Source: a bacterium (GTDB lineage Bacteria; Patescibacteriota; Minisyncoccia; Sungbacterales; SURF-37). Taken from it: a DNA stretch of 64,000 nt. The position numbers and the translations under genes are program-made. This document shows positions 2,957 to 57,777 of this stretch, in pieces; position 1 is the stretch's first letter, and each line of letters begins with the position of its first letter. Location: positions 178 to 64,177 of the forward strand of contig JAUSHI010000002.1 of the NCBI GenBank assembly GCA_030648055.1. The letters are read 5' to 3'. A model generated the notes under the pieces. The model did no database searches and was not told the DNA's origin. It saw only the letters and a program-made list of their open reading frames with translations.

Positions 2957-5900
2957 ATGAAGTTTTTTATTATAGTTTTAGCTGCAATTTTCTTGTTTTT
3001 ACCTTTTGGGGTATTTGCCTTATGTAGCTCCGACGGTTATACAATTGTATATATTAACGGCATTCGTACAAAGAGTATAGACGATGCAAACACCGACCTC
3101 AATGAGTTGCAAAGAAAATTTATAAAATATTCGTATTTAAATGGAGTCGTATTTCATACTGGTTACAATCCTTCGCACCTTGCCGGCGCGGGTGATCTAA
3201 TTGAGTCGGCATCTCAATTATTTGATTCTTCCGTAAGCGATTATGACTTCAAAAATATTCTTCTTCAGATATATCCGGAAGTGACGACACGGAAAATTCT
3301 TCTCGTGGGGCATTCGCAAGGAACTTTCTATGCTAATAAAATCCACGATTACCTTCTCGCGAACGGCGAAGAGAAAGGGGCGGTTGGTATATATAATGTT
3401 GCGACGCCAGATAGTTCTGTTGCGGGTTATGAAAATGTTCCAAGTCAAGGGGCATATCTTACTTCTCAAAACGATAAAGTTATCAATGCCGTGCGCGCAG
3501 TAGCTTTAAAAGTCGGAGCTAAGCAGCCACTTCCGGCGAACATTGATATCGCGCTTACTCCGCAGGAGGCTGCCGACCCTAATGGTGGCCATTCTTTTAG
3601 CGGTGTATATCTCTCTAACGCTCCGGTTCGCATGGTTTCTGAGATGGAAGACGCGCTTAACAAACTTAACGTATCGGAAGCTCAAGACATACAAGATGGC
3701 GTCGGTTGTTTTATTCCACCGCCGAAAAATTTTTCTTATCGTGTGCAACAAGGACTTTTTGCCGTTGCCGATCCTATGGCGAGCGGCGCAGTTTCTGCTT
3801 ATAATGCAGAGCAGGCCATGGGAACTGCTTTGGGTAACGCGCTTGCGGGCGCCGCGAAAGAAATAAAAAATACAGCAATGGTCCTTTTGGCGTTTAGACA
3901 AAACGCGCCGCAAGCCCCACAAACCGTTTTGCCAACAAGTTTGTCTCAAGTTATTTCAACGCCAGCTCCAAAGACTTCGCAAAAGGCAAACACCAACGAA
4001 ACCCAAATATTAGCGTCAGCGGAATCAATTACGGATAATGTCGGCGGTGCGTCAGATACGGTTTTTGAAAATAATGTTCCGGCGTTAACCCCTGATCCCG
4101 AAATCGCGAATAATCCATCACCGTCGGGTGGTGGTTCTTCCGGCGGTTTTCTTGGCAGTATTTCCGCTCCGGGAGCTGGGGCCGCGCCAGATCCGGTTAA
4201 TAGTTCTGTTTCAATTCAAGAAACATCCACTTCAACTCCGCCATCTCCACCGCCCCCTCCGCCTGCGGATACGGCCGCTCCGGATATTGCTTTTTCAATC
4301 AGTGAATGCGATTCGTCGCTTTCCAGCGATATATGTTTTTTAACTAATCCGGCACTGCATTTGTCGTGGTCGTCAAGCGCAAGTGATACAGATCACTTTG
4401 AAATTGTTTGTGAAGTAAACAGCTCGCCATGCGCGGGTCTTTCTTTTGCTCCGACCAGTGCTACATCAACAGAATATAGCGTGCCAACCGAAAAACAGAC
4501 ATACATTTTCAAAGCAAAAGCGGTTGATGTTACGGGTAATGCGAGTGTGGAAGTTATTCAGACAGTATCTTTCGCCGCAACGCCTGTTGTTATCAACGAA
4601 GTTGCTTGGATGGGAACCGGTTCTAGCGCGACCACAAACAAAGATGAATGGATTGAATTGTATAATTCCACTGATTACTCCGTAAATCTTTCCGGATTTT
4701 CAATTTTATTTTTAGCACCAGGAACAACAACTCCAGCGCAAACTATTTTGCTTACCAATACAATTCCCTCAAAAGGATTTTATTTGATTGAGCGCACAAA
4801 CGATACGGCGGTGTCGGATGTTGCCGCCGATCTTGTTTTTTCATTTGGCGCGAGTGGGCTTTTAAATAGCGGCATGATTTTGCGTCTTGAAAGAGGCGGG
4901 GCGATTATTGACCGTACGCCTGATCTCTGTAGTTCAGCATGGTGCGCCGGTTCATCATCAACATATCAGACAATGGAGCGGATTGGCCCCTTGGCGTCAG
5001 GTGATGGCGCGTCAAACTGGGGAACAGCTCTTAGTGAGTTTATTTTGAATGGCAAGAATGCCGACGGGCAAAATATTAAAGGTACGCCCAAAAAACGAAA
5101 CAGTAAAAATTATTTAATTAGTCAGACCGGCACGATTGTTCAAAATAAAACGCTTACAAAAGCCGATTCGCCGTATATTATTTTACAATCTGGCTTGACC
5201 GTACAATCGGGTGTTACGCTCACGATTGATCCTGGCGTGGTTATGAAATTTGTTGTGCCGAATGAGCCGGCATTAACAGTTAACGGCGCTATTAAATCAA
5301 ATGGAACCGCCGCGGAGCCGGTGGTGTTTACTACTTTTGCCGACGATATATACGGCGGCGATATGAATGCGGACGGTGTGTGTGATTTGGGGAACGCGTC
5401 TTCAACTGCTTCTTGTCCGGCAGTGGGAAGCTGGAAACAGATATTTATCAGCGCATTGAGCGTTGGTTCGGAGTTTCATAATACTATTGTTCGCTATGGC
5501 GGGAAGTGGTTTTCCAATATGACATTTCGCGGCATGGTGGATGTTGATTCAACGCCGGTGGTATTTGACGCGGCAACTTTTGAATACGCGGAACAATACG
5601 GGTTGCAGTTGAGCGCTTCCGACTCTCAGATACAGAACAGCGTTTTTCGTAACAATAATAAGTACAGTGATTCTATTGGGCTTTATGCTGTTGGCGGTTC
5701 GCCGGTTATTTCTCAAAATACTTTCCAGCAGAATAGAACCGGCCTTCAGCTTGTGGGCTCTTTGGCGACAGTAGGCGGCAATACTTTTACTGATAATAGT
5801 TCTTATGCTGTTTATTCATCGGGATTGGCCGGCATGTTTACACAAAACTCCGGTTCGGGTAACGGAAAAAATGGTATTTTGCTTTTTGGCCAGATTGTTG

Positions 5901-6576: not shown

Positions 6577-6606
6577 CATTCTCAAATTCTTAAGAATTTG
6601 AGAATG
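6577..6606. repeat. palindrome family copy with different arms (cattctcaaattcttaagaatttgagaatg)
   Basis: Perfect 30-nt palindrome 39 nt after the stop of the giant ORF, followed by the same conserved tail at 6612-6639. Confidence 0.85.
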
Positions 6607-7746: not shown

Positions 7747-7753
7747 AAAGTTC

Positions 7754-7781
7754 ATTCCAACATTCTTAAGAATGTTGGAAT
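7754..7781. repeat. palindrome family copy (attccaacattcttaagaatgttggaat)
   Basis: Perfect 28-nt palindrome 8 nt after the dinB stop. Confidence 0.85.
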
Positions 7782-7857
7782 TATGAAGGATTTCTTGAAA
7801 AACAAAAGCCCGCAAGAGGGCGGGCAGGATATAAAAAAGAAAGAATAAGGAAGAAAG

Positions 7858-9650: not shown

Positions 9651-9995
9651 CGCACCCTCCTTATATATGTAAATGTTCTGCCTTCGGTATAGCAAGGAAA
9701 TTCGTTTTCGGCAATGCGGGAAAAAATAAAAATCATCCGTTTTTATTCGGCGTTTTATAGAGATAAAACTTATCCACAGCTAGCGTTGCGCCTCGTGCCG
9801 CTTGGGATATAATAGATATGAAGCACCTTCGAGAGGAGTTTTCGCAAAGCAGGCCTCGCAGAGCAAGGCAATTCCAGAAAGCCAAGCACTCCGATTGCTT
9901 AGCAAAGACTCTTTTCACTTCACCAGCTCATTTACACCCACAACAACCAACAACCATAGGGCAGCAAACGCTGTCCTCCTTTTTTATATTTTTTG

Positions 9996-10436
9996 TTAAG
10001 GGTTTACGCTCGGGCACATGTTTGACGAAGGAAGCACTTTTGAAATTATTTTATCGGCCGTGTTTTTCAAAAATCCTTCATCGGCGTTATGGCTTTTCAG
10101 CTCTTCTAAAAGATCGGTTGTCTCTGCCGTAAGTTCAAGCGGGGTTTTTGTTCCGGCCTTATTTTGTTCTGGTGTTTTATTTTTTTGCCGGCCGTCTTCC
10201 AGTTCGTTTTGAAGAGCACCGAGGGATTCTTCTATTTTTTCAATAAGTTCAAGGCGTGTTTCCGCTGTATTTTTTCCGCCGAATAACGTTTTTGTGACCG
10301 CACCGGTAATACGGTCTTTAATTGAGCCGTCCGCTACGGCTAAGTTTTGCATATTTTTTGCCAAATCTCCCGGCAGGTTGGTAAACGCGAATGCCAGGAA
10401 AATAAGCACGATAATTGCGGCAAAAAAAGCTTTCAT
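9996..10436 (-). CDS. secreted hypothetical protein
   Basis: 146 aa with a signal peptide MKAFFAAIIVLIFLAFAF, then a charged helical region. Confidence 0.6.
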   Translation of the reverse strand: MKAFFAAIIVLIFLAFAFTNLPGDLAKNMQNLAVADGSIKDRITGAVTKTLFGGKNTAETRLELIEKIEESLGALQNELEDGRQKNKTPEQNKAGTKTPLELTAETTDLLEELKSHNADEGFLKNTADKIISKVLPSSNMCPSVNP

Positions 10437-11052: not shown

Positions 11053-11063
11053 ATTAATGTATG

Positions 11064-11369
11064 CCACCCCTCCCCAGTTTTATAAAATATGTCACAGCGA
11101 GCCGCTTCGCCCGTGGTGGGAGGTGCTATTTCACAGGGTTTACTGCTGCGGGAGCGAGCTACGCTCGCTTCCTCGCAAAACCCGTGAAAAGCTATTTAAA
11201 CGCTTTTCACCACACGCGGCCCGCAGAATATAAACTTACACATTTCTCCTCCAAGTTTTGCCTGCTATGATGGTAAAACTGGAGAGGGATGCTCACGCTT
11301 GTAGTGAAATTTATTTCGCTACACGCTTATAAATTTCAACAAGCATGGCAAAGCGCAAAGAAAAAATAG
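11064..11369 (+). promoter_or_regulatory. structured repeat element A with mini-ORF (26 codons) upstream of and overlapping the ftsK start
   Basis: Arms CCCCTCCCCAGTTTTA (11067-11082) and TAAAACTGGAGAGGGA (11274-11289) are complementary at 14/16 and enclose several hairpins. The 3' box is GGAGAGGGATGCTCAC. The mini-ORF 11289-11369 (MLTLVVKFISL..) overlaps the ftsK ATG out of frame. Confidence 0.6.
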
Positions 11370-13513
11370 TGCGGACGGTGGTTGAAAAGGGCAGGCCGAA
11401 AAAACGATGGCATGATGATATTGACCCGCATACTAAAAAAAGCATTTTCGCAGTGTTGTTTTTCGTGCTGACCGGAATCACGCTTCTTGCTTATTGGGGG
11501 AGAGCTGGAGTTTTGGGTGTATATCTGTTTGACATCCTTGATTATCTTATAGGCCGGGCTTATTTTTTGGCCCCCATAACTTTTCTTTTGATAGCGTTTT
11601 CGCTTATTTTTTCTTTTCAGAGAAAATTTTTTGCGGCAACTTTTATTGGTGGGGCCATTTTTTTAGTTTCGTCTCTTGCGCTGATTGATCTTCTGTTGAA
11701 GAACCATACTGCTGGAGCCGTGGGTTATTTTACGAATTTGCCTCTTTTTAAAATTTTTGATTTCTGGGCAAGCATGGTTATTGAAGCCGGTCTTTTGGTT
11801 GTCGGATTTTTAATTACTTTAAACATCCCGCTTTTCAAGAAAAGTGCGAGCGAGGAAGCTAAGGATATTGAAACAAGGGGGGTTGTAAAAGAGGCGGCAG
11901 AGGGATTGAAAGATTTTGCCAGTCAGATGAAAAATGTTGCAACGGAAATGAAAGAAGGCCTTGCCGGCGGAAAAGGAGAGGGCGGCAATGTTGCGGCCAC
12001 AAGTGCTGTTACGGTGGATGCCGGACGCAAGGCGCCAAAATCGGAAGAGCAGGAGACGGAGTTTAAACAGAAAAAAATTAAATCCAATTATAAAAAGCCG
12101 CCGCTTGATCTTTTGAGTGACGACCGCGGAACGCCTTCTTCCGGCGACATTCGCGCCAACGCTAACATCATCAGGCGCACTCTTCAAAATTTCGGCATTG
12201 ATGTTGAGATGGGCGAAGTATCGGTCGGGCCGACAGTTACTCAATATACACTGAAGCCAGCCGAGGGCGTGAAGCTCTCTAGGATTGAGGCCTTACATAA
12301 AGATTTGTCTTTAGCGCTCGCCGCGCATCCCATAAGAATTGAAGCGCCGATTCCGGGTAAGTCGCTTGTTGGGATTGAAATACCGAATCGGTCTATTGCT
12401 CTTGTCGGGCTTAGGAGCTTATTTGAAAATTCTATTTATCAAGAATCTGAGGCCGCCCTTCTTTTTGCTTTGGGACGCGATGTCGCGGGGGCTCCGGTTT
12501 ACGCGAATCTTGCCAAGATGCCGCATCTTCTTGTGGCCGGCTCAACCGGTTCCGGAAAATCGGTTTCAATTCACTCTATCATGATTTCTTTTCTCTATCG
12601 GAATTCTCCGGAGATGCTTAAATTTTTGGTCATAGATCCCAAGCGGGTTGAACTCGCGTCCTATTCTGGAATTCCCCATCTTTTAACCGCGCCCATCACC
12701 GATTATAAAAAAGCTATTGCCGCGCTTCGTTGGGCGGTAAGAGAAATGGAACACCGCTATGAAATTTTAGCCGGCGTTGGCGCAAGAGACCTTGTCGGCT
12801 ACAACAATATTATTTCCGGTAAAAAATCCGGAGAAGAAGAGCTGATGCCTTATATTGTTATCGTCATTGATGAGCTGGCTGATTTAATGGTTTCTTTCCC
12901 GAGAGAGGTGGAGGGCTCAATTATACGTCTTGCGCAAATGGCCAGAGCCGTCGGCATTCATCTTATTGTGTCAACGCAAAGACCGTCGGTTGAGGTTATT
13001 ACCGGACTCATTAAGGCAAACATTACTTCGCGCATTGCTTTTCAGGTTGCCTCACAAGTTGATTCGCGCACTATTCTTGATATGGGGGGCGCGGAAAAAC
13101 TTCTTGGGAATGGCGACATGCTTTTTTTGGCGGGGGATACGGCCAAGCCGCGGAGAATCCAGGGGGCTTTTGTTTCGGAAGGAGAGGTGAAAAAAGCAGT
13201 GGAATTTTTGAAAGAGCAAATGGAGGAAGAAGCGTCTTCGGGGGAAGAGATTTTTGCAAATGAACGCGCGAGCGAGTTTGATTCTGACGGAATTGGCGGA
13301 GACGGCGATGACCCTCTTTATGAGGAGGCGCGTGAACTTATAATTGAAGCTGGCAAGGCATCGGCCTCATATCTTCAGCGGAGATTGAAAGTAGGATACG
13401 CTAGGGCCGCGCGGCTTCTGGATATGCTTGAAGAGCAGGGCGTTATCGGGCCGGGTGAGGGTGCAAAACCCAGAGAGATTTTAATAGGAAAAGAGAATCA
13501 AGATTCTATTTAA
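11345..13513 (+). CDS. ftsK: DNA translocase FtsK/SpoIIIE
   Basis: N-terminal TM helices. Walker A LVAGSTGSGKSV, IVIVIDELADLM, and a C-terminal gamma winged helix ASASYLQRRLKVGYARAARLLDMLEEQGVIG. Confidence 0.9.
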   Translation: MAKRKEKIVRTVVEKGRPKKRWHDDIDPHTKKSIFAVLFFVLTGITLLAYWGRAGVLGVYLFDILDYLIGRAYFLAPITFLLIAFSLIFSFQRKFFAATFIGGAIFLVSSLALIDLLLKNHTAGAVGYFTNLPLFKIFDFWASMVIEAGLLVVGFLITLNIPLFKKSASEEAKDIETRGVVKEAAEGLKDFASQMKNVATEMKEGLAGGKGEGGNVAATSAVTVDAGRKAPKSEEQETEFKQKKIKSNYKKPPLDLLSDDRGTPSSGDIRANANIIRRTLQNFGIDVEMGEVSVGPTVTQYTLKPAEGVKLSRIEALHKDLSLALAAHPIRIEAPIPGKSLVGIEIPNRSIALVGLRSLFENSIYQESEAALLFALGRDVAGAPVYANLAKMPHLLVAGSTGSGKSVSIHSIMISFLYRNSPEMLKFLVIDPKRVELASYSGIPHLLTAPITDYKKAIAALRWAVREMEHRYEILAGVGARDLVGYNNIISGKKSGEEELMPYIVIVIDELADLMVSFPREVEGSIIRLAQMARAVGIHLIVSTQRPSVEVITGLIKANITSRIAFQVASQVDSRTILDMGGAEKLLGNGDMLFLAGDTAKPRRIQGAFVSEGEVKKAVEFLKEQMEEEASSGEEIFANERASEFDSDGIGGDGDDPLYEEARELIIEAGKASASYLQRRLKVGYARAARLLDMLEEQGVIGPGEGAKPREILIGKENQDSI

Positions 13514-19682: not shown

Positions 19683-20318
19683 ATGACCATCGGACAAATT
19701 CTTCGCAGCGCGAGGGAAGAAATGGGTTTTTCGGAAAAAGAAGCGGCGGACGACCTGCAGATACCGCTTAAATTTATTATTTCTCTTGAGCGTGGCGAAT
19801 GGTCAAAATTGCCGGCAAGAGTATACGCAAGAGGTTTTTTAAAAAAATACGCCGATTATCTTGAACTTAAATCGGAGGAAATTGTCAAAGAGTTTGATAA
19901 AGAACTGGCGGATGTCGCGTCTTCAGAGGTTCTGGTCGGGATTCCGGAGCAGGAGAGTGGAGGGAGATGGCTTTTGTTTTTAAATCAGCAAAAAGTTGTT
20001 CTTATTATTTTTTGCGCGGCTATTATCTTTGCCGGCGCGTATTTTTTTTATGAGTTCCGTTTTGTTATCAGGCCTCCGGAACTCACAATTACTTCGCCTG
20101 CGAAAGACGAGGTCACGGCGGGGGATTCCTTCCCGATTTCCGGCGTTATTGAAAAAGAATCCACCCTGACTCTTAACGGCAGGACGGTCTATACGAATGC
20201 GGCGGGAGAATTTAGCGATTCGGCATTGCTTTCCAAGGGTTTGAATTCGCTTGAATTTGAAGTAAAAAATCGTTTCGGCAAGACAAATAAAGTGTTAAGG
20301 TATATATTGGTTAAGTAA
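19683..20318 (+). CDS. RodZ-like HTH (XRE-type) membrane protein
   Basis: N-terminal HTH IGQILRSAREEMGFSEKEAADDLQIPLKFIISLERGEW, ARGFLKKYADYL, a central TM helix and a C-terminal beta domain. Confidence 0.7.
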   Translation: MTIGQILRSAREEMGFSEKEAADDLQIPLKFIISLERGEWSKLPARVYARGFLKKYADYLELKSEEIVKEFDKELADVASSEVLVGIPEQESGGRWLLFLNQQKVVLIIFCAAIIFAGAYFFYEFRFVIRPPELTITSPAKDEVTAGDSFPISGVIEKESTLTLNGRTVYTNAAGEFSDSALLSKGLNSLEFEVKNRFGKTNKVLRYILVK

Positions 20319-20331
20319 AGGTAAGGTATTT

Positions 20332-20521
20332 CATCCCCCGCCAATTTTGCGGGGCAGTACTGGGCGAAGCGCTTCGCCCATAAAGGGCCGCGCTATTTGC
20401 GCACGCGCTTCGCGAGAGTTATACATGGGCGCTCTCTCTAAACAATCAGCCAAATTTATTAAGGCAAAATTGGAGGGGGATGCTCATGATTGTAACTAAA
20501 TTTTATTCATTAATATTCTAA
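20332..20521 (+). promoter_or_regulatory. structured repeat element B with mini-ORF (13 codons) upstream of recA
   Basis: Arms CATCCCCCGCCAATTTTGC (20332-20350) and GCAAAATTGGAGGGGGATG (20464-20482) are complementary at 18/19. The inner perfect hairpin is GGGCGAAGCGCTTCGCCC. The mini-ORF 20480-20521 (MLMIVTKFYSLIF) ends 13 nt before the recA ATG. Confidence 0.6.
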
Positions 20522-20534
20522 AATTTAGACAATC

Positions 20535-21566
20535 ATGGCAAAAGAAGAAAAACAATCAAAAAGCAAAATACTTGAAGATACCGTTAAAGCGATTCAGGAA
20601 AGGTTTGGCGAGGGCGCGATAATGAAGCTTGGGGACGTGCGAAAGGTTGATGTGGACGTTATACCTACCGGCTCGCTTGCGCTGGATTTAGCGCTTGGTG
20701 TCGGCGGTATTCCCAGGGGGCGGGTAATTGAGATTTTTGGCCCCGAGGCCTCCGGGAAAACCACGCTTGCTTTGAACATTATCGCCCAAGCGCAGAAAAA
20801 GGGGGGGCTTGCCGCGTTCATTGACGCGGAGCACGCCCTTGACCCCGACTATGCCAAGCGCATCGGAGTAAAAGTGAACGACCTTTTGATTTCCCAGCCG
20901 GATACCGGCGAGCAGGCCCTTGAAATCGTTGATTCGCTTGTCCGTTCCGCCTCGGTTGATGTCGTGGTTATTGATTCCGTTGCGGCACTTACCCCCAAGG
21001 CTGAGATAGAGGGTGATATGGGTCAGGTGCATATAGGTCTTCAGGCGCGCTTGATGTCTCACGCCTTGCGCAAGCTCACCGCGAGTGTTGCTAAAACAAA
21101 AACTACTGTTATTTTTATTAATCAGATACGCATGCAAATTGGCATAATGTTTGGGAATCCGGAAACTACTCCAGGAGGCAAGGCGCTTAAATTTTATTCT
21201 TCGGTGAGAATTGAAGTGAGAAGAGCCGCGCAGATAAAGAAAGGCGAGGAAGTTATAGGCAACCGGGTTAACGCAAAAGTAGTCAAAAACAAAGTTGCGG
21301 CACCTTTCAGGAGGGCTGAATTTGATATTTTCTTTAATGAAGGTATCTCTCCCGAAGCGGAGCTTCTGACTCTTGGCGAAAAATATGCCATTGTAAAAAA
21401 ATCCGGCGCCTCGTTTACGTATGGCAACGTGCGGCTTGGCATGGGTTTTGACAATGCGAGAGTATTTCTTAAAGAAAATCCTAAAGTAGCGGAAGAGATC
21501 ACGAAAAAGATAAAGAGCGCGGCCTCGGGCGGAGAAGTAAAAGAAGTTAAAGAAAAGGAGGCATAG
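20535..21566 (+). CDS. recA: recombinase RecA
   Basis: [19 protein letters not shown] (Walker A), [10 protein letters not shown] and VVIDSVAAL, over the full 343 aa. Confidence 0.97.
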
Positions 21567-23033: not shown

Positions 23034-23094
23034 ATAAAAAAATCTCCCCGAAAAGGGATTTTTTGTTATCTGAGTGCGTAGGGCACGAGGCCTA
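23034..23094. repeat. direct repeat copy 1: degenerate terminator hairpin plus the last 29 nt of rpsR
   Basis: ..TTGTTATCTGAGTGCGTAGGGCACGAGGCCTA is identical to 23241-23272. Confidence 0.85.
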
Positions 23095-23209: not shown

Positions 23210-23272
23210 ACAAAAAATCTCCCCAGTAAGGGGAGATTTTTTGTTATCTGAGTGCGTAGGGCACGAGGCCTA
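23210..23272. repeat. direct repeat copy 2 (functional rpsR 3' end plus bidirectional terminator)
   Basis: AAAAAATCTCCCC-AGTA-AGGGGAGATTTTTT hairpin, then the true rpsR stop region. Confidence 0.85.
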
Positions 23273-23930: not shown

Positions 23931-23973
23931 AATTTATTTTTGAGCGTTAGCCGTTAAATTTATTAGCCCCCCT

Positions 23974-46288: not shown

Positions 46289-46432
46289 GTTGAGGTACGG
46301 CACTTCTTTTTAGTTTTACACCCGGTAGAACGGCGGCGCGATAGTATTTGAGGGTCTGGCTATTCGCCACCGCGCGCCGCACCATGGATTACTTAATTAA
46401 TGGCGATTCATTAGTTGTACAAAAGTAGTATA

Positions 46433-46516
46433 GTAAAATTGGGGGGGATGCTCATTTTTGTAGCTACTCGCCCCATTTATAAACAAAAATGGCAAAAGAT
46501 TATTACAAAATTTTAG
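46433..46516 (+). promoter_or_regulatory. repeat element C (right half only) with mini-ORF (22 codons) overlapping the dnaJ start
   Basis: GTAAAATTGGGGGGGATGCTCAT. The mini-ORF 46448-46516 (MLIFVATRPIY..) overlaps the dnaJ ATG out of frame. I found no matching left arm. Confidence 0.5.
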
Positions 46517-47571
46517 GTGTCCCGAGGAACGCTTCTAAGGAAGATGTAAAACATGCTTATAGAAAGCTGGCGCATTTACATCACCCCGATAAAGCAGGTG
46601 GCAACGAGGCGAAGTTTAAAGAAATTAACGAGGCCTATCAGGTGCTGGGAGATGAAAAGAAGCGTTCACAGTACGACCAATTCGGGCGGGTGTTTGAGGG
46701 GGGCGGCGGAAGTCCTTTTGGCCAAGGCGGGTTTAGTTTTGGAGAAGAGTTTCGGGGTTTCGGCGATTTTGACTTTTCAGATATTTTTGAAGATGTTTTG
46801 GGCGGGATGGGTTTTGCCGGGGGGAAACGCGAGCCGCATTCAAAAAAAGGAAGAGATATACAAATTGATTTGGAAATTCCTTTTGAAGAAATGATTTTTG
46901 GTGGCAAGCACGAAGTATCGTTGCAGAAACTTGGGAAGTGCGAACGTTGCGGAGGGACAGGGGCAGAGGCCGGCTCAAAGATGGTTACGTGCAATACCTG
47001 CCATGGCTCCGGAAAGGTTGAGAAAATCCAACGGACTATTTTGGGTGTGTTTTCGCAAGTGAGCATTTGTTCAACCTGCAATGGTAAGGGCGAGGTGCCT
47101 GAAGTAACATGCAAAAATTGCGGAGGCAGGGGAGTTCTTCGCGCGGAGGATCGTATTGAAATTTTTGTGCCGGCCGGAGTTAATGGTAATGAGCTTCTGA
47201 AAGTTTCTGGAAAAGGCGAGGCGTCAGTTACTGGAGGCGTGCCGGGCGATCTTTTTGTGAAAATTCACGTGATGTCTTCAAAAATTTATAAAAGGCAGAG
47301 TAACGATGTAATTATGATGCTTTCGGTGAAATTTACCGACGCGGCTTTGGGGGCGAAGGTTGATTTGGGAACTCCTGACGGTAAAATCGTGATGAAAATT
47401 CCTGAAGGCACGGAGTCCGGAGATATTTTAAAAGTTCGCGGCAAGGGCGTTCCGCACCTTTCGGGGTACGGCAGGGGAGATCTTTTGATTGAGATTAAAG
47501 TTGAAACGCCCAAGAAACTTTCGCGCAAAGCAAAAGAGATGATTGAAAAATTAAAAGAAGAAGGAGTTTAA
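46489..47571 (+). CDS. dnaJ: chaperone DnaJ
   Basis: J domain with HPD (LAHLHHPDK), a G/F region, and four CxxCxGxG zinc motifs. Confidence 0.96.
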   Translation: MAKDYYKILGVPRNASKEDVKHAYRKLAHLHHPDKAGGNEAKFKEINEAYQVLGDEKKRSQYDQFGRVFEGGGGSPFGQGGFSFGEEFRGFGDFDFSDIFEDVLGGMGFAGGKREPHSKKGRDIQIDLEIPFEEMIFGGKHEVSLQKLGKCERCGGTGAEAGSKMVTCNTCHGSGKVEKIQRTILGVFSQVSICSTCNGKGEVPEVTCKNCGGRGVLRAEDRIEIFVPAGVNGNELLKVSGKGEASVTGGVPGDLFVKIHVMSSKIYKRQSNDVIMMLSVKFTDAALGAKVDLGTPDGKIVMKIPEGTESGDILKVRGKGVPHLSGYGRGDLLIEIKVETPKKLSRKAKEMIEKLKEEGV

Positions 47572-48214: not shown

Positions 48215-48270
48215 CAGCCAGAGGCTGATCCGCCTTTGGCGGAAAGGAGAAGACCGATTTCAAAAAGCGT

Positions 48271-48608: not shown

Positions 48609-48681
48609 AACAGAGGCTGATCCGCCTTTGGCGGAAAGGAGACGCAAGTTCTGCGCCAGAGGCGCACTCGCCTCAGGCGAG

Positions 48682-48801: not shown

Positions 48802-48835
48802 GGGCCTATAGCATAGTGGCAGTGCAGCCGGTTTG
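48802..48835 (+). pseudogene. tRNA-Ala 5' fragment (positions 1-35) of a disrupted older copy
   Basis: GGGCCTATAGCATAGTGGCAGTGCAGCCGGTTTG is 30/34 identical to 49143-49176. Confidence 0.75.
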
Positions 48836-48857
48836 TCCCGATTTATACAAATTTAAA

Positions 48858-49103
48858 ATGTTTTATCTTTATATCTTAAAGTTGGTAAAATATGGGACAT
48901 ATTATATTGGAATTTGTAAGGATATCGGGAGTCGCTTATATCTGCACAATAATGGTAAAGTAAAATCAACAAAATTTAAGAGATCACGGGTACTTATTTG
49001 CACAAAAGAATTTAATATTTTATCTGAAGCTAGAAAATTAGAAATTAAATTGAAATCCATGAAGAAGCGTTCGTATTTAGAGAAGCTGATAAAACATTTC
49101 TAA
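48858..49103 (+). CDS. GIY-YIG nuclease domain protein (81 aa)
   Basis: MFYLYILKLVKYGTYYIGICKDIGSRLYLHNNG...EARKLEIKLK. The ATG at 48858 is preferred over the track GTG at 48816, which lies inside the tRNA fragment. Confidence 0.75.
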   Translation: MFYLYILKLVKYGTYYIGICKDIGSRLYLHNNGKVKSTKFKRSRVLICTKEFNILSEARKLEIKLKSMKKRSYLEKLIKHF

Positions 49104-49142
49104 AATTTGTATATAAATCGAGGATCCTCGTTAAATCGCGGT

Positions 49143-49213
49143 GGGCCCGTAGCATAGTGGTAGTGCATCCGGTTTGCATCCGGAGGGCGGGAGTTCGATT
49201 CTCCCCGGGTCCA
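49143..49213 (+). tRNA. tRNA-Ala (anticodon UGC) with G3:U70
   Basis: GGGCCCG-TA-GCAT-AGTGGTA-GTGC-A-TCCGG-TTTGCAT-CCGGA-GGGC-GGGAG-TTCGATT-CTCCC-CGGGTCC-A. Confidence 0.93.
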
Positions 49214-49240
49214 TTATGGGCCCACCACGATTTATCGGGA

Positions 49241-49454: not shown

Positions 49455-49736
49455 ATGCCTCCGGCCGACAATTTAAAAATAAAATTTATTGCGCTTGCAA
49501 TTTTGGTCATCCTGCTTGTCGCGGCTGGTTTTTGGTATTGGTATCAAAAAAGAGCCAAAGTTCTAAAGGAAACAAGCCGGAGTGCTCAATTTTTTGGGAA
49601 AGTGCAGAATCCGATGGAAAAACTTCCCGAGACCAATCCTTTCAAGGTTCAAAGCAATCCTTTTTCAGCCGACGCTAATCCTTTGAGTAGCTCCAACCCC
49701 TTTAATGAGATCTATAAAAATCCGTTCGGTCAATAA
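49455..49736 (+). CDS. small membrane-anchored protein with NPF repeats
   Basis: 93 aa with an N-terminal TM helix. The C-terminus carries TNPF..SNPF..ANPL..SNPF..KNPF. Confidence 0.55.
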   Translation: MPPADNLKIKFIALAILVILLVAAGFWYWYQKRAKVLKETSRSAQFFGKVQNPMEKLPETNPFKVQSNPFSADANPLSSSNPFNEIYKNPFGQ

Positions 49737-49740
49737 ATTC

Positions 49741-52167
49741 ATGCCAGCCAATATTCAAAAATTACTCTTCAGAGGAATAATATTGTTTGGACTTTTTGCG
49801 GCGGCATTAATAGTGCAGGCGCAAGCGGCCCGCGTCTCTTCCATTACGCTTGAAAAAGGCAGTTCTTTCGGTCTTTTCATATTGACCGTTGCTGACCCCG
49901 ACGGCGTAAGGGAATTCTCACTGCAGCCGCCGGATAAATTCCCCTACGGCGGCGGGGTTAATTGTCCAAAGACATTTAAAAATAATAATGTAATTTTTTC
50001 TCTGGAAGATTTTACTCCGGAGATGACCGCGCATGTGCTTGATTGCAAGGACAATCGCGTTGAGTTCACCATTCTTCCTCCGAAAGACGGCGTTACTCGC
50101 GGTAGTGTAGTAGCCGCCCCTTCTTTGAAGCCAGTTTCAGTGCCAGCCAAACCGGCAGAGGAAGTTAAGAAGCCAGTTGGCGAAGATGAATTTGTTTTTC
50201 CAGTCGCGGAATTGGGAAATTGCAAGAGCGAAGACGATTGCAGAATTTATTGCGAAAGCCCGAGCCATTTCCGAGCCTGTTTAGCGTTTGCCGAAAAGTA
50301 TGACGCGATGAGTAAAGAAGAATTGACCGAGGCAAAGAAATTCGCCAAGGTAGTTGAAGACGGCGGTCCTGGCGGTTGCCGAACCGAGCTGGAATGCCAA
50401 GCGTATTGTGAAAATTCAGACCACTTTGAAGAGTGTGTTGCTTTTGCCGAAAAGTATGATTTGTTAAGTCCGGACGAATTGGCTAACGCCAAAAAGTTTC
50501 TTCCGCTTATTAAATCCGGCGAGATGCCGGGGGGCTGTAAAACCGAAAACGAATGCGAGGCGTATTGCTCGCAAAGCGCGAATTTGGAAGGATGCATTGC
50601 CTTTGCCGAGCGGCACGGCGTTATTTCTGCGAAAGAGCTGGCAGAAGCCAAGAAGTTTCTCCCACTCATTAAATCCGGCCAAACGCCGGGCGGCTGTGAT
50701 AGCAAATTAACATGTGAGACCTACTGCGCCCAGGATAAAAATATGGATGAATGTCTTGCGTTTGCCGAAGAAAATGACATATTGTCGCCCGAAGAACTCC
50801 AAATGGCAAAAAAAATGCTGCCTTTAATGAAGAGCGGCGAAACGCCTGGCGCTTGTAAGAGCCGCGCCTCGTGCGAAGAATATTGCGCAATAGGCATCAA
50901 TATTGATGAGTGTCTTTCTTTCGCGGAAAAACAGGGCCTTATGACCCCCGAAGAACTGGAAGAAGTTAAAAAAATTCTTCCGTTTATGAAATCCGGCGAA
51001 CTACCCGGAGGGTGCACATCAAAAGAGGGCTGTGAGGCGTATTGCGAAGAAGACGACAATCTTGATGAGTGCTTGGCTTTCGCTGAAAAAGCAGGGCTTA
51101 TCTCGCCGGAAGAATTGGAAATAGCCAAAAAAACAGGGGGCAAGGGCCCGGGTGATTGTCGCGGGAGAGCGTGCGCAACATTTTGCGAAGACCCCGATAA
51201 TTTTATTATTTGCCGTGAATGGGCAGAAAAAAATGGTTTTACTGACGAGCTTTCCGGTACTTTAAGCAAAGGCGGGTTTACGGGTGGTCCGGGAGGATGC
51301 AAAACTGTTGAAGAATGCCAGGCATTTTGTCAGGAGAACCCGGATAAATGCCCTGGCCCGGGAAAACAAGGCCAGCATTGTTGCATTTCCCCAATTCCGG
51401 AATTAGAGGATAATTTACCGGGTTGTATTAAGTATTGCCAGGGGAATCCGGAAAATTGTCGAAAAGCAGAAGAAGCGTGGTGCCTGGATAATCCGGAATA
51501 TTGTCCTGATGGAAAGTTTGTTCCGCAGTGTGGTAATGGCGGCTCGGGTGGCGACTCCGGAGGAGGCCCAGGCGGATGCAAATCCCCAGAGGAATGCCAA
51601 GCTTATTGTCAGGAACATCCGGCAGAATGCGGCATCGGTGGAGGCGGGGGTGCCGGTGGTGGTCCTTCAAGAGGTGGGGGTGGACCGCCGCCAAACTGCT
51701 CCTTTGAGGAATTAAATCCTGTCTGCGCAGCAGTGAGTCCAGGTAAACATCACACTTTTAATAACGAATGCTTTGCGAAAGCTTTTGGAGCCACAAACCT
51801 GCGGCCGGGAGTCTGCCCCGGAGATGTACCCTGTTCGACGGTTCGTGATCCGGTCTGTGCTGTTAAAAGCGGAGCCACTAGGAGCTATTTCAATGGGTGT
51901 GCCGCCGAAGGAGACGACGCGGGAATTCTCTATGCGGGTGAGTGTAAAACCGATGGACCGCTACCATCCGTGGTGCCTCAGTTCCCAACATCAGGAGGAC
52001 AACCACCCACCATTCCTACCCCCGCACAAATCCAGCAACAAATAGAACAGCAAATTCAACAACAAGTTGATTGTTCTCTTTTCGCTTCCGTGCCGGAATG
52101 TTCTTTTGCGGGTCCAGAAGGTTCGCAAAACTACAACCACTGCAAACAGTGTTATCCGGATAAATAA
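49741..52167 (+). CDS. secreted Cys-rich repeat protein with two C-terminal Kazal-like modules
   Basis: Signal peptide. 7 full and 2 truncated repeats of about 48 aa (PGGC-x5-C-x2-YC-x7-C-x2-FAEK..S.EEL..AKK). The Kazal-like modules are C-x7-PVC-x13-C-x14-C, twice. Gly-rich and Gln-rich tails follow. Confidence 0.8.
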   Translation: MPANIQKLLFRGIILFGLFAAALIVQAQAARVSSITLEKGSSFGLFILTVADPDGVREFSLQPPDKFPYGGGVNCPKTFKNNNVIFSLEDFTPEMTAHVLDCKDNRVEFTILPPKDGVTRGSVVAAPSLKPVSVPAKPAEEVKKPVGEDEFVFPVAELGNCKSEDDCRIYCESPSHFRACLAFAEKYDAMSKEELTEAKKFAKVVEDGGPGGCRTELECQAYCENSDHFEECVAFAEKYDLLSPDELANAKKFLPLIKSGEMPGGCKTENECEAYCSQSANLEGCIAFAERHGVISAKELAEAKKFLPLIKSGQTPGGCDSKLTCETYCAQDKNMDECLAFAEENDILSPEELQMAKKMLPLMKSGETPGACKSRASCEEYCAIGINIDECLSFAEKQGLMTPEELEEVKKILPFMKSGELPGGCTSKEGCEAYCEEDDNLDECLAFAEKAGLISPEELEIAKKTGGKGPGDCRGRACATFCEDPDNFIICREWAEKNGFTDELSGTLSKGGFTGGPGGCKTVEECQAFCQENPDKCPGPGKQGQHCCISPIPELEDNLPGCIKYCQGNPENCRKAEEAWCLDNPEYCPDGKFVPQCGNGGSGGDSGGGPGGCKSPEECQAYCQEHPAECGIGGGGGAGGGPSRGGGGPPPNCSFEELNPVCAAVSPGKHHTFNNECFAKAFGATNLRPGVCPGDVPCSTVRDPVCAVKSGATRSYFNGCAAEGDDAGILYAGECKTDGPLPSVVPQFPTSGGQPPTIPTPAQIQQQIEQQIQQQVDCSLFASVPECSFAGPEGSQNYNHCKQCYPDK

Positions 52168-57745: not shown

Positions 57746-57777
57746 ACATTCTCACATTCTTGAGAATGTGAGAATGT
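57746..57777. repeat. palindrome family copy (acattctcacattcttGagaatgtgagaatgt)
   Basis: 32-nt palindrome 8 nt after the aspS stop. Confidence 0.85.

Follow-up and report, generated by a model that had tools for sequence, protein, structure and literature searches.

A structured element upstream of ftsK, recA and dnaJ

The 64-kb window studied here, i.e. the whole stretch of contig JAUSHI010000002.1 that was analysed, carries the genes ftsK, recA and dnaJ, each of which is preceded by one copy of the structured intergenic element that is the subject of this report. By its RecA homologues, the window belongs to Candidatus Sungbacteria/Sungiibacteriota, Parcubacteria of the candidate phyla radiation (CPR); the group consists of ultra-small bacteria from groundwater. 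Coordinates refer to the window and to its + strand unless stated otherwise. The three genes lie at 11345..13513 (ftsK; Pfam FtsK_SpoIIIE, alpha and gamma domains), 20535..21566 (recA; Pfam RecA, 2.4e-135) and 46489..47571 (dnaJ; Pfam DnaJ, DnaJ_C and CXXCXGXG domains), and all of them begin with ATGGCAAA. These assignments agree with the original prediction on this DNA, which had also reported a common box in front of the genes. We found the box three times, always on the + strand, at 11275-11296 (AAAACTGGAGAGGGATGCTCAC, ftsK), 20466-20487 (AAAATTGGAGGGGGATGCTCAT, recA) and 46435-46455 (AAAATTGGGGGGGATGCTCAT, dnaJ), 1-2 nt away from the starts given originally; the dnaJ box is one purine shorter than the other two. 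A search of the window with the 14-mer core of the box returned the same three sites at 0-1 mismatch, with 0.86 matches expected at <=2 mismatches. Alignment of the three spacers (190-290 nt) revealed homology from end to end, beyond the box, and the claim of a repeated structured module lying in sense orientation directly upstream of genes was upheld.

The recA copy belongs to what we term the canonical subfamily and extends from a decayed left core, ATTTCA, to the ATGGCA of recA (20328..20540; alignments, fold and nhmmer, E = 1.7e-60). Its parts follow the order that is typical of the predicted fold: a C-rich/G-rich stem P1, a three-way junction, a conserved junction strand, a hypervariable single-stranded linker and an AU-rich hairpin P2. 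The 5' arm of P1, CCCCCGCCAATTTTGC at 20335..20350 (20332-20350 in the original prediction), pairs with 20464-20479. The junction at 20364..20413, supported by covariation in P3 and P5, consists of P3 (20364-20372 with 20405-20413) around P4 (20376-20388) and P5 (20389-20403). It is followed by the junction strand at 20414..20433 (consensus AAGAGTTATACATGNGCAT), which is unpaired yet retains 70-80% identity among canonical copies, and by the linker at 20434..20463, usually opening with a CU-rich tract that is complementary to the box. Box search and pair count place the 3' arm of P1 together with the box, GCAAAATTGGAGGGGGATGCTCAT, at 20464..20487. A mini open reading frame (mini-ORF), MLMIVTKFYSLIF with its stop, occupies 20480..20521, and P2 occupies 20481..20540 by pair count (5' arm 20481-20505, loop 20506-20518, 3' arm 20519-20540).

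The two other copies are divergent. The ftsK copy (11061..11350; nhmmer E = 1.5e-46) starts with the left core ATGCCA and carries about 80 nt inserted in the P5 loop; alignment and fold assign its P1 arms to 11068-11083 and 11273-11288, the box to 11275-11296 and P2 to 11290-11350. In its minimum-energy fold the box pairs with a CU-rich local partner at 11245..11263 (TCTCCTCCAAGTTTTGCC), which outcompetes the long-range P1 arm. The dnaJ copy (46297..46494; nhmmer E = 8.8e-29) has the left core ACGGCA and a short P2 (46449-46494); here, again by alignment and fold, the P1 arms at 46304-46319 and 46433-46447 flank the interior, the box lies at 46435-46455, and the long stem consists mainly of G-U pairs and is absent from the minimum-energy fold. 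The homology of the whole spacers, P2, the local partner of the ftsK box and the G-U stem of dnaJ had all gone unnoticed in the original prediction.

Homologous copies in related genomes

An exact-pattern scan of one genome per species gave eight matches. Six of these were true copies from four CPR metagenome-assembled genomes (MAGs) representing four GTDB species, the remaining two being chance matches in high-GC genomes. A metagenome scan contributed five further distinct copies. An nhmmer profile built from the aligned copies and independent of the box recovered diverged members between rpsF and ssb (loci L022 and L024; L-numbers denote loci from related MAGs and metagenomes) and in front of ychF (L026). 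Part of the invariance of the box is a matter of design, because the database copies of the canonical type were all found via the box pattern. Altogether, the search of relatives yielded about 14 copies outside the window and brought the total to about 17.

The genes located 3' of the element are recA (twice), ftsK, dnaJ, groEL (three times), rpmA, gyrA, ssb (twice), ychF and genes for a sigma-70-family factor, an amidohydrolase and an AAA_33 kinase. All of the approximately 17 copies have the orientation of the gene and a 3' boundary placed exactly at its start codon, so that the element is not a randomly scattered miniature inverted-repeat transposable element (MITE). The family, with members of about 190-300 nt, is hosted by Sungbacteria-type Parcubacteria. 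At the other end, the stop codon of a co-directional upstream gene usually lies a few to a few tens of nt before the element. The distance from stop to left core is 8, 8 and 9 nt in the window copies, a normal operon spacing in this genome, and 3-14 nt in several others. Some copies reside within operons, as in groES-groEL and rpsF-ssb(-rpsR). Pairwise identity among canonical copies amounts to 0.81-0.89 irrespective of gene or genome.

The rpsF-ssb spacer of the window itself (23931..23973, - strand) contains a G-run and a P2-like 3' part when compared side by side by eye, and is probably what is left of the ssb-type element, of which L022 and L024 carry intact copies; nhmmer did not detect this candidate. 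The record titles of the MAGs that provided L001, L002 and L008 (CAZDKA01) and L007 (CAYHJX01) say Saccharibacteria. This label is doubtful: the CAZDKA01 RecA is about 89-90% identical to the window RecA and grouped among Sungbacteria RecAs.

A conserved fold supported by covariation

The long-range stem proposed originally for the recA copy, with 18 of 19 positions paired (20332-20350 with 20464-20482), is contained in the minimum-energy fold of this copy (-86.3 kcal/mol, z = -6.9), and P1 is kept by compensatory changes. RNAalifold, applied to 12 distinct copies, predicted 55 pairs, 23 of them with double changes. The structure comprises 15 pairs in P1, a three-way junction in which P3 encloses hairpins P4 and P5, and 24 pairs in P2, including UGC-GCA and CAU-AUG pairs with codons 1-2 of the gene. 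In a pair count on that structure, 96.4% of the cells were paired and 22 of 53 pairs showed double changes. Column shuffles led to an expectation of 8.6 +/- 1.8 such pairs, none of 500 shuffles reached 22, and slid-partner controls gave 1-12. The covariation includes five of the 15 P1 pairs (98.9% paired in the 12 copies), six of 22 P2 pairs (98% paired), four of eight pairs in P3 and all four in P5. Large insertions are confined to hairpin loops, namely the P4 loop (L016), the P5 loop (ftsK, L007, L012) and the P2 loop (L021), as expected for a real fold. The same fold was predicted for the ssb and ychF types; the L021 copy is without most of the junction.

P2 is formed between the sequence directly after the box (CAYNNTTGTA...) and ...TACAANNATG at the true start codon, and the two N positions covary in the window copies (GA/TC, GC/GC, TT/AA). 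In the recA copy, CAU of the box pairs with the AUG of recA and UGC with its second codon, GCA. Canonical copies have a fully paired box in their minimum-energy folds: its AUGCU binds a left GGCAU, which extends P1, and its CAU joins the main AUG to form the base of P2. P1 and P2 are thereby stacked on one box strand and make up an almost uninterrupted duplex of about 45 bp, whose bulges are conserved. The predicted probability that the main AUG is unpaired is 0.00 in the recA copy and near 0 across the canonical copies. Perfect hairpins in the interior had also been proposed. The palindrome GGGCGAAGCGCTTCGCCC is indeed present, while comparison favours a long-range pairing of GCGAAGCGC with GCGCTTCGC: the palindrome centre is broken in L001, L003, ftsK and L007, with a compensating change in the distal strand GCGCTTCGC.

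A multi-stem junction with conserved unpaired nucleotides that tolerates variable hairpin insertions is reminiscent of a riboswitch-like leader, in which the three-way junction would sense a ligand or protein and P1/P2 would serve as expression platform. As in a structured aptamer, the three-way junction of P3, P4 and P5 shows covariation and has conserved nucleotides, and the 3' strand of the closing stem runs on into the initiation region. We nevertheless regard a sensing leader as very improbable: the genes concerned form an incoherent set without a shared pathway, P1 exceeds known switching helices by far in length and stability, L021 does without most of the junction, and Rfam offers no match. 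Searched with Rfam 15 at gathering threshold, the whole window returned three tRNAs only and nothing on the elements; at permissive thresholds, the recA and ftsK copies and five copy-bearing loci gave matches at chance level, and no element was hit with E < 2.

Selection on base pairing at individual loci

Copies at the same gene in different genomes were then compared. Identity at four-fold sites was 0.36 for recA (window versus L002) and 0.25 for ssb (L022 versus L024), i.e. saturated. Within the elements, the P1 and P2 arms were 95-100% identical and the junction domain 78-86%, as compared to 33-41% in the linker, which is saturated as well. Between the two recA-linked copies, six of the seven differences in paired columns form three compensatory pairs, and between the groEL-linked copies L009 and L016 all six are compensatory; unpaired columns differ at 30-40%. 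As neutral sites are saturated while stems are kept or compensated, the structure must be under selection, and base pairing is the selected property at the given loci as judged from these comparisons. Taken together, the alignments show a lineage-restricted family of predicted structured elements that are docked on start codons and whose fold is under selection. The family has neither an Rfam entry nor a description in the literature searched, and appears to be previously undescribed.

Mini-ORFs and translational context

According to the original prediction, the element is a riboregulator that sequesters a Shine-Dalgarno (SD) sequence, encodes a leader peptide translationally coupled to the main gene, and defines a stress or DNA-damage regulon. 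Several observations speak for such a model. The three mini-ORFs of the window exist and end as described, with the stop of the recA mini-ORF 13 nt before recA and the ftsK (26 codons) and dnaJ (22 codons) mini-ORFs overlapping the main genes. In seven of eight canonical copies the mini-ORF has 13 codons and a stop located 13 nt 5' of the main AUG. P1 buries GGAGG and the AUG of the mini-ORF in the predicted fold, and the A of GGAG is kept unpaired as a 1x1 mismatch in 11 of 12 copies, which favours the SD reading for the canonical subfamily. Chaperone and DNA-metabolism genes (recA, ssb, gyrA, ftsK, groEL, dnaJ) are frequent targets.

Other results led us to consider this model quite unlikely. 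The mini-ORF is not a constant feature: it measures 8, 22, 26, 46 or 48 codons in other copies, and in the ssb and ychF subfamilies the box is devoid of both AUG and GGAGG. The synonymous TCA/TCG and TTA/CTA differences, taken originally as a sign of selection on the peptide, each form the 5' side of a double change from GC/GC to AT/AT in the uppermost part of P2 (columns 283/296 and 284/295); variable mini-ORF codons coincide with covarying P2 positions, and P2 pairing accounts for the variation seen in the peptide region. The supposedly very strong SD is spaced by only 3 nt from the mini-ORF AUG, as opposed to 6-7 nt in the two genuine SD genes of the window. It is correct that ftsK, recA and dnaJ have no SD of their own. 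This is, however, no special trait of theirs, because the absence of an SD is the norm in this genome: only about 2 of 46 window genes have a well-placed one, and many have a TATAAT-like hexamer near the ATG. An anti-SD motif was detected in only 48% of Parcubacteria 16S rRNAs (PMC9297842). The regulon could not be sustained either, as copies also precede rpmA, gyrA, ychF and the genes for the sigma factor, the amidohydrolase and the kinase, and recA, groEL and ssb are without a copy in close relatives.

An ORF that would act as a relay from the left ATG across the element was rejected as a general feature, its length ranging from 9 to 69 codons with inconsistent stops. The left-ORF peptide, compared with a set of 5.8 billion proteins in order to find copies called as spurious genes, had no match there.

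Transcription context

Neither a sigma-70-type promoter (consensus scanner) nor an intrinsic terminator was predicted between box and gene in any window copy. The sole promoter prediction near the recA copy is at 20280-20308, upstream of the element. An internal sigma-70 promoter in P2 was discarded, the TAAAAT-like hexamer not being conserved (CAAAAT in L001 and L021, absent from the ssb type). With the short gap to the upstream stop and the positions in the groESL and rpsF-ssb-rpsR operons, co-transcription with the flanking genes is the simplest assumption.

The near-continuous duplex of about 45 bp formed by P1 and P2 and the copies inside the groES-groEL and rpsF-ssb operons are also compatible with an intercistronic element for RNA processing or stability. 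Its duplexes would be RNase III-type sites or exonuclease barriers that separate cistrons, set their relative stability and leave a short leader for SD-independent initiation, which would fit a genome that is largely SD-less with short leaders and the occurrence of unrelated large stem-loops in the same spacers of relatives. An element of this kind would have no need for a conserved three-way junction or junction strand, and the fact that the box tracks codon 2 would go unexplained. We therefore hold pure processing to be unlikely.

Ends of the element, gain and loss

In most copies the 5' end repeats the start of the gene. Canonical copies begin with ATGGCA or ATGGCT and those of the ssb type with ATGAAC or ATGACC, ssb itself starting with ATGAAT; the three left cores of the window are decayed versions of this repeat. 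The resulting direct repeats comprise ATG plus 2-3 nt at both ends (ATGGCx in most canonical copies, ATGAA in the ssb type). They are a candidate target-site duplication, but the end repeat also takes part in the conserved pairing. ATGGCA closes all 13 copies of the canonical type, with GCA as codon 2, the rarest Ala codon in the window (16%). Between the G-run and P2, the box varies together with the gene start (UGCUCAU for AUGGCA, UUCAU for AUGAA, with UCUCAC as an alternative to UUCAU, and UGCUAU for AUGCA) and so stays complementary to AUG and codon 2 of the gene. The two termini are unrelated to each other and no terminal inverted repeats are present; the left arm has its inverted-repeat partner inside the element, about 60 nt short of the right end.

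Presence of the element varies among relatives, and it is missing at recA, groEL and ssb in close ones. Close relatives with RecA proteins 81-92% identical have recA without it. Two of the element-free recA sites show a 7-nt ATGGCNN directly before the true ATG, an arrangement that hardly occurs elsewhere in the approximately 194 kb of DNA from relatives. The groES-groEL spacer of the complete genome CP066690.1 measures only 25 nt. Its last approximately 22 nt, all that is kept of the element at groEL in L034, correspond to the 3' end of the element (ATGCTCCAAAATTTAGACAATC) and are followed by ATGGCA. At the empty site in L025, the rpsF and ssb genes share an ATGA overlap; L024 and L026 read ATGAAC...ATGAAT. 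This rpsF/ssb comparison looks like insertion just 3' of the original start. The similar identity across genes, the pattern of presence and absence, and the remnants point to a mobile or duplicative origin followed by repeated loss.

These data bring up the main rival to a functional reading, namely a selfish palindromic mobile element without host function (REP/BIME, MITE or IS200/IS605-derived). It would insert next to ATGGC or ATGAA by an internal guide and bring its own copy of the start, all other insertions having been purged. Such an element would account for the multi-copy, star-like relationship with 0.81-0.89 identity at unrelated genes and genomes, the end repeats that differ by subfamily, the complementarity of the box to the repeat, the asymmetric ends with nearby hairpins and the variable presence with truncated remains. 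In the same vein, the left core sits at a normal operon start position, 8-9 nt past the upstream stop, and other C/G-ended long-stem families share the groEL, dnaJ, ssb and ychF spacers. What a selfish element accounts for is the distribution and not the site-specific conservation: conserved arms beside saturated linkers and compensatory changes at the same locus require selection after insertion. Moreover, no terminal inverted repeats, transposase or near-identical recent copies were found in the DNA examined. The circle-junction pattern (...TTTAGACAATCATG joined to GCATCCCCCGCC...) was absent from the relatives' loci and from viral contigs, and viral contigs also lacked the box pattern. Hence we judge a purely selfish nature to be somewhat unlikely.

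A more speculative idea, to which we assign a low probability, is that of a start-codon-docking mobile leader whose internal box serves as a guide complementary to ATG and codon 2. With a repeat of 5-6 nt at both ends, the folded strand would form a junction able to branch-migrate, in which the box can align either the two ends of the element or its two flanks. This geometry would fit guide-directed single-strand insertion or excision aimed at start codons, an intron-like removal of the element from RNA, or ribosome shunting or hopping from the upstream stop or a decoy AUG to the true AUG across about 200 structured nt. If true, docking would be a new way for an element to live harmlessly inside the operons of an SD-less, streamlined genome. 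A role of the linker as guide or antisense sequence was also considered; BLAST of 12 linkers against all DNA analysed gave only chance matches, and no local target was seen.

Proposed function

Our preferred reading, to which we give a probability of roughly 0.45, is that of a co-transcribed leader or intercistronic element that is selected for its structure, gates the start codon of the downstream gene and probably began as mobile DNA. In this scheme, the element would be transcribed with its flanking genes and its RNA structure would act in cis by occluding the downstream start codon. Initiation would depend on the opening of P2, because the AUG is held in this hairpin. In the canonical subfamily, ribosomes translating the short ORF through the 5' arm of P2 could open it; P1 would in turn mask the short ORF, and a ribosome that completes the upstream gene could loosen P1. 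In the other subfamilies, P2 might be opened by melting of its AU-rich pairs, by nucleolytic processing of the long duplexes or by a bound factor. Mobile or duplicative DNA that landed at ATG plus 2-3 nt and rebuilt the start codon is the probable origin of the family and its probable means of spread; individual copies would later have been kept by selection or lost by deletion.

A number of points weigh against start-codon gating. With 16-23 near-perfect bp, P1 is far too stable for an ordinary riboswitch-type toggle, and the downstream genes make up no coherent functional group. Opening by ribosomes cannot be a general step, as the ssb and ychF subfamilies are devoid of the mini-ORF. That RNA rather than single-stranded DNA is the selected molecule, and on this strand, is something we infer; the helices contain 13 G-U pairs and 14 A-C mismatches, a balance without the wobble asymmetry that would favour RNA on this strand. 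A local-fold scan around the AUG of 46 window genes did not set the element-bearing genes apart by occlusion and was uninformative. The repeated loss at recA, groEL and ssb implies that the element is dispensable. Finally, for the postulated mobile origin, neither a transposase or recombinase partner in the loci examined nor a near-identical recent copy was identified.

CPR bacteria have tiny genomes with little non-coding DNA, and this lineage still keeps structured elements of 200-300 nt before core genes. The pairing with AUG and codon 2 in mostly SD-less organisms offers an entry to translation initiation and operon expression in this group. If the element is mobile and rebuilds start codons, it would follow an unusual strategy for harmless insertion. 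It is a candidate for a new Rfam family.

Relation to known elements

The element is closest to co-transcribed palindromic repeats and to start-occluding leaders, without showing the defining features of either. Like REP/BIME, ERIC and Correia (NEMIS) sequences, it is multi-copy, intergenic, structured, often located in operons and variable in presence, and those repeats are co-transcribed with their neighbours and can affect mRNA processing and stability. It differs from them by its fixed orientation, a 3' boundary at the start codon, pairing with AUG and codon 2, a branched interior, the lack of terminal inverted repeats, and compensatory evolution at orthologous loci. REP sequences are short imperfect palindromes of high copy number at gene 3' ends in both orientations, which does not describe the full element; REP-like are, in contrast, stand-alone P2-like hairpins preceded by GTAG at gene 3' ends. 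The terminal inverted repeats of a classical MITE are also lacking.

MIRU, tandem units of 46-101 bp without a conserved complex fold, resemble the element as repeats between cistrons with short ORFs, whereas a mini-ORF occurs only in some subfamilies of the element. In MIRU operon-spacer repeats, the ends of the short ORFs abut the flanking genes, which Supply et al. (1997) reportedly read as preserving translational coupling. With the miniature derivatives of IS200/IS605 (PATEs), the element shares asymmetric ends with hairpins and an internal sequence complementary to target or end. Members of the IS200/IS605 family insert strand-specifically next to a short target, which is recognized by means of a guide. 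However, no TnpA or TnpB was seen in the loci examined, the left end of the element has no local hairpin (P1 being long-range), and its putative target is a start codon regenerated by the element itself.

RNA thermometers and leaders of the secM-secA and erm type are similar in holding an initiation codon in a hairpin and, for canonical copies, in the short ORF that runs through one arm. The element is larger than such start-occluding leaders, occurs at many unrelated genes, and has a three-way junction, no conserved peptide and an SD-less host. With regard to a possible thermometer, P2 is AU-rich and pairs with the AUG, and groEL and dnaJ are among the targets; many targets are not heat-shock genes. 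Group I and II introns, retrons, integron attC sites, 6S RNA and Y RNA were dismissed, since there was no model match and the required neighbours or motifs were missing.

Other repeats in the window and in relatives

The same spacers house other long-stem families in relatives. Examples are found in L002 at about 2100-2260 (rpsF-ssb), in L029 at 3911-4067 (ychF leader) and in L033 at 1324-1483 (dnaJ leader) and 9833-10000 (groES-groEL spacer). Their long-range stems use the motifs CCCCGTTAGA...TCTAACGGGG and CCCCGTTACAAC...GTTGTAACGGGG or AT-rich TTCTAAATCCTAAA... inverted repeats. In the groEL, dnaJ, ssb and ychF spacers of relatives, having a large structure is more conserved than its sequence. 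The stand-alone P2-like hairpins (TTTGTAGCYAAAATTT...AAATTTTRGACAAA) lie inside GGGTAAAGG/CCCTTTAA stems at the 3' ends of convergent genes (L008 330-440, L011 430-500), in L008 beside mini-hairpins that reuse the AATTTTGC/GCAAAATT and GCGCTTCGCGC motifs. Clusters of ATTCGTA/TACGAAT (e.g. ATTCGTAGATTCGTAAAAGATTCGTAATT) were noted upstream of recA (L022 9892-10000), groEL (groES-groEL spacer, L035 4867-4966) and ssb (L026, about 5585-5690) in relatives without a structured element there, and may represent either an operator common to these genes or a further repeat family located there.

In the window, a 30-nt palindrome, CATTCCAACATTCTTAAGAATGTTGGAATG, is present in six perfect or near-perfect copies (1666-1695, 1865-1894, 2248-2277, 6577-6606, 7753-7782 and 57747-57776), mostly just 3' of gene ends, and may represent a terminator-like or REP-like family. 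Perfect intergenic direct repeats of 38 nt (23057-23094 and 23235-23272) and 32 nt (48219-48250 and 48611-48642) were also observed, the second copy of the 32-mer being located directly 3' of tRNA-Lys. Repeats with a period of 159 nt (50362-51609) lie inside the ORF 49705-52167 and encode Cys-rich modules (GGPGGC..EC.A.C). At 48802-48835, 34 nt are 88% identical to the 5' half of the complete tRNA-Ala at 49142-49214, and this partial copy is followed by a small GIY-YIG-like ORF at about 48890-49103. The arrangement (48802-49214) looks like what is left of a mobile element or intron at a tRNA gene; for Patescibacteria, tRNA genes with group I introns have been reported (PMC13011429).

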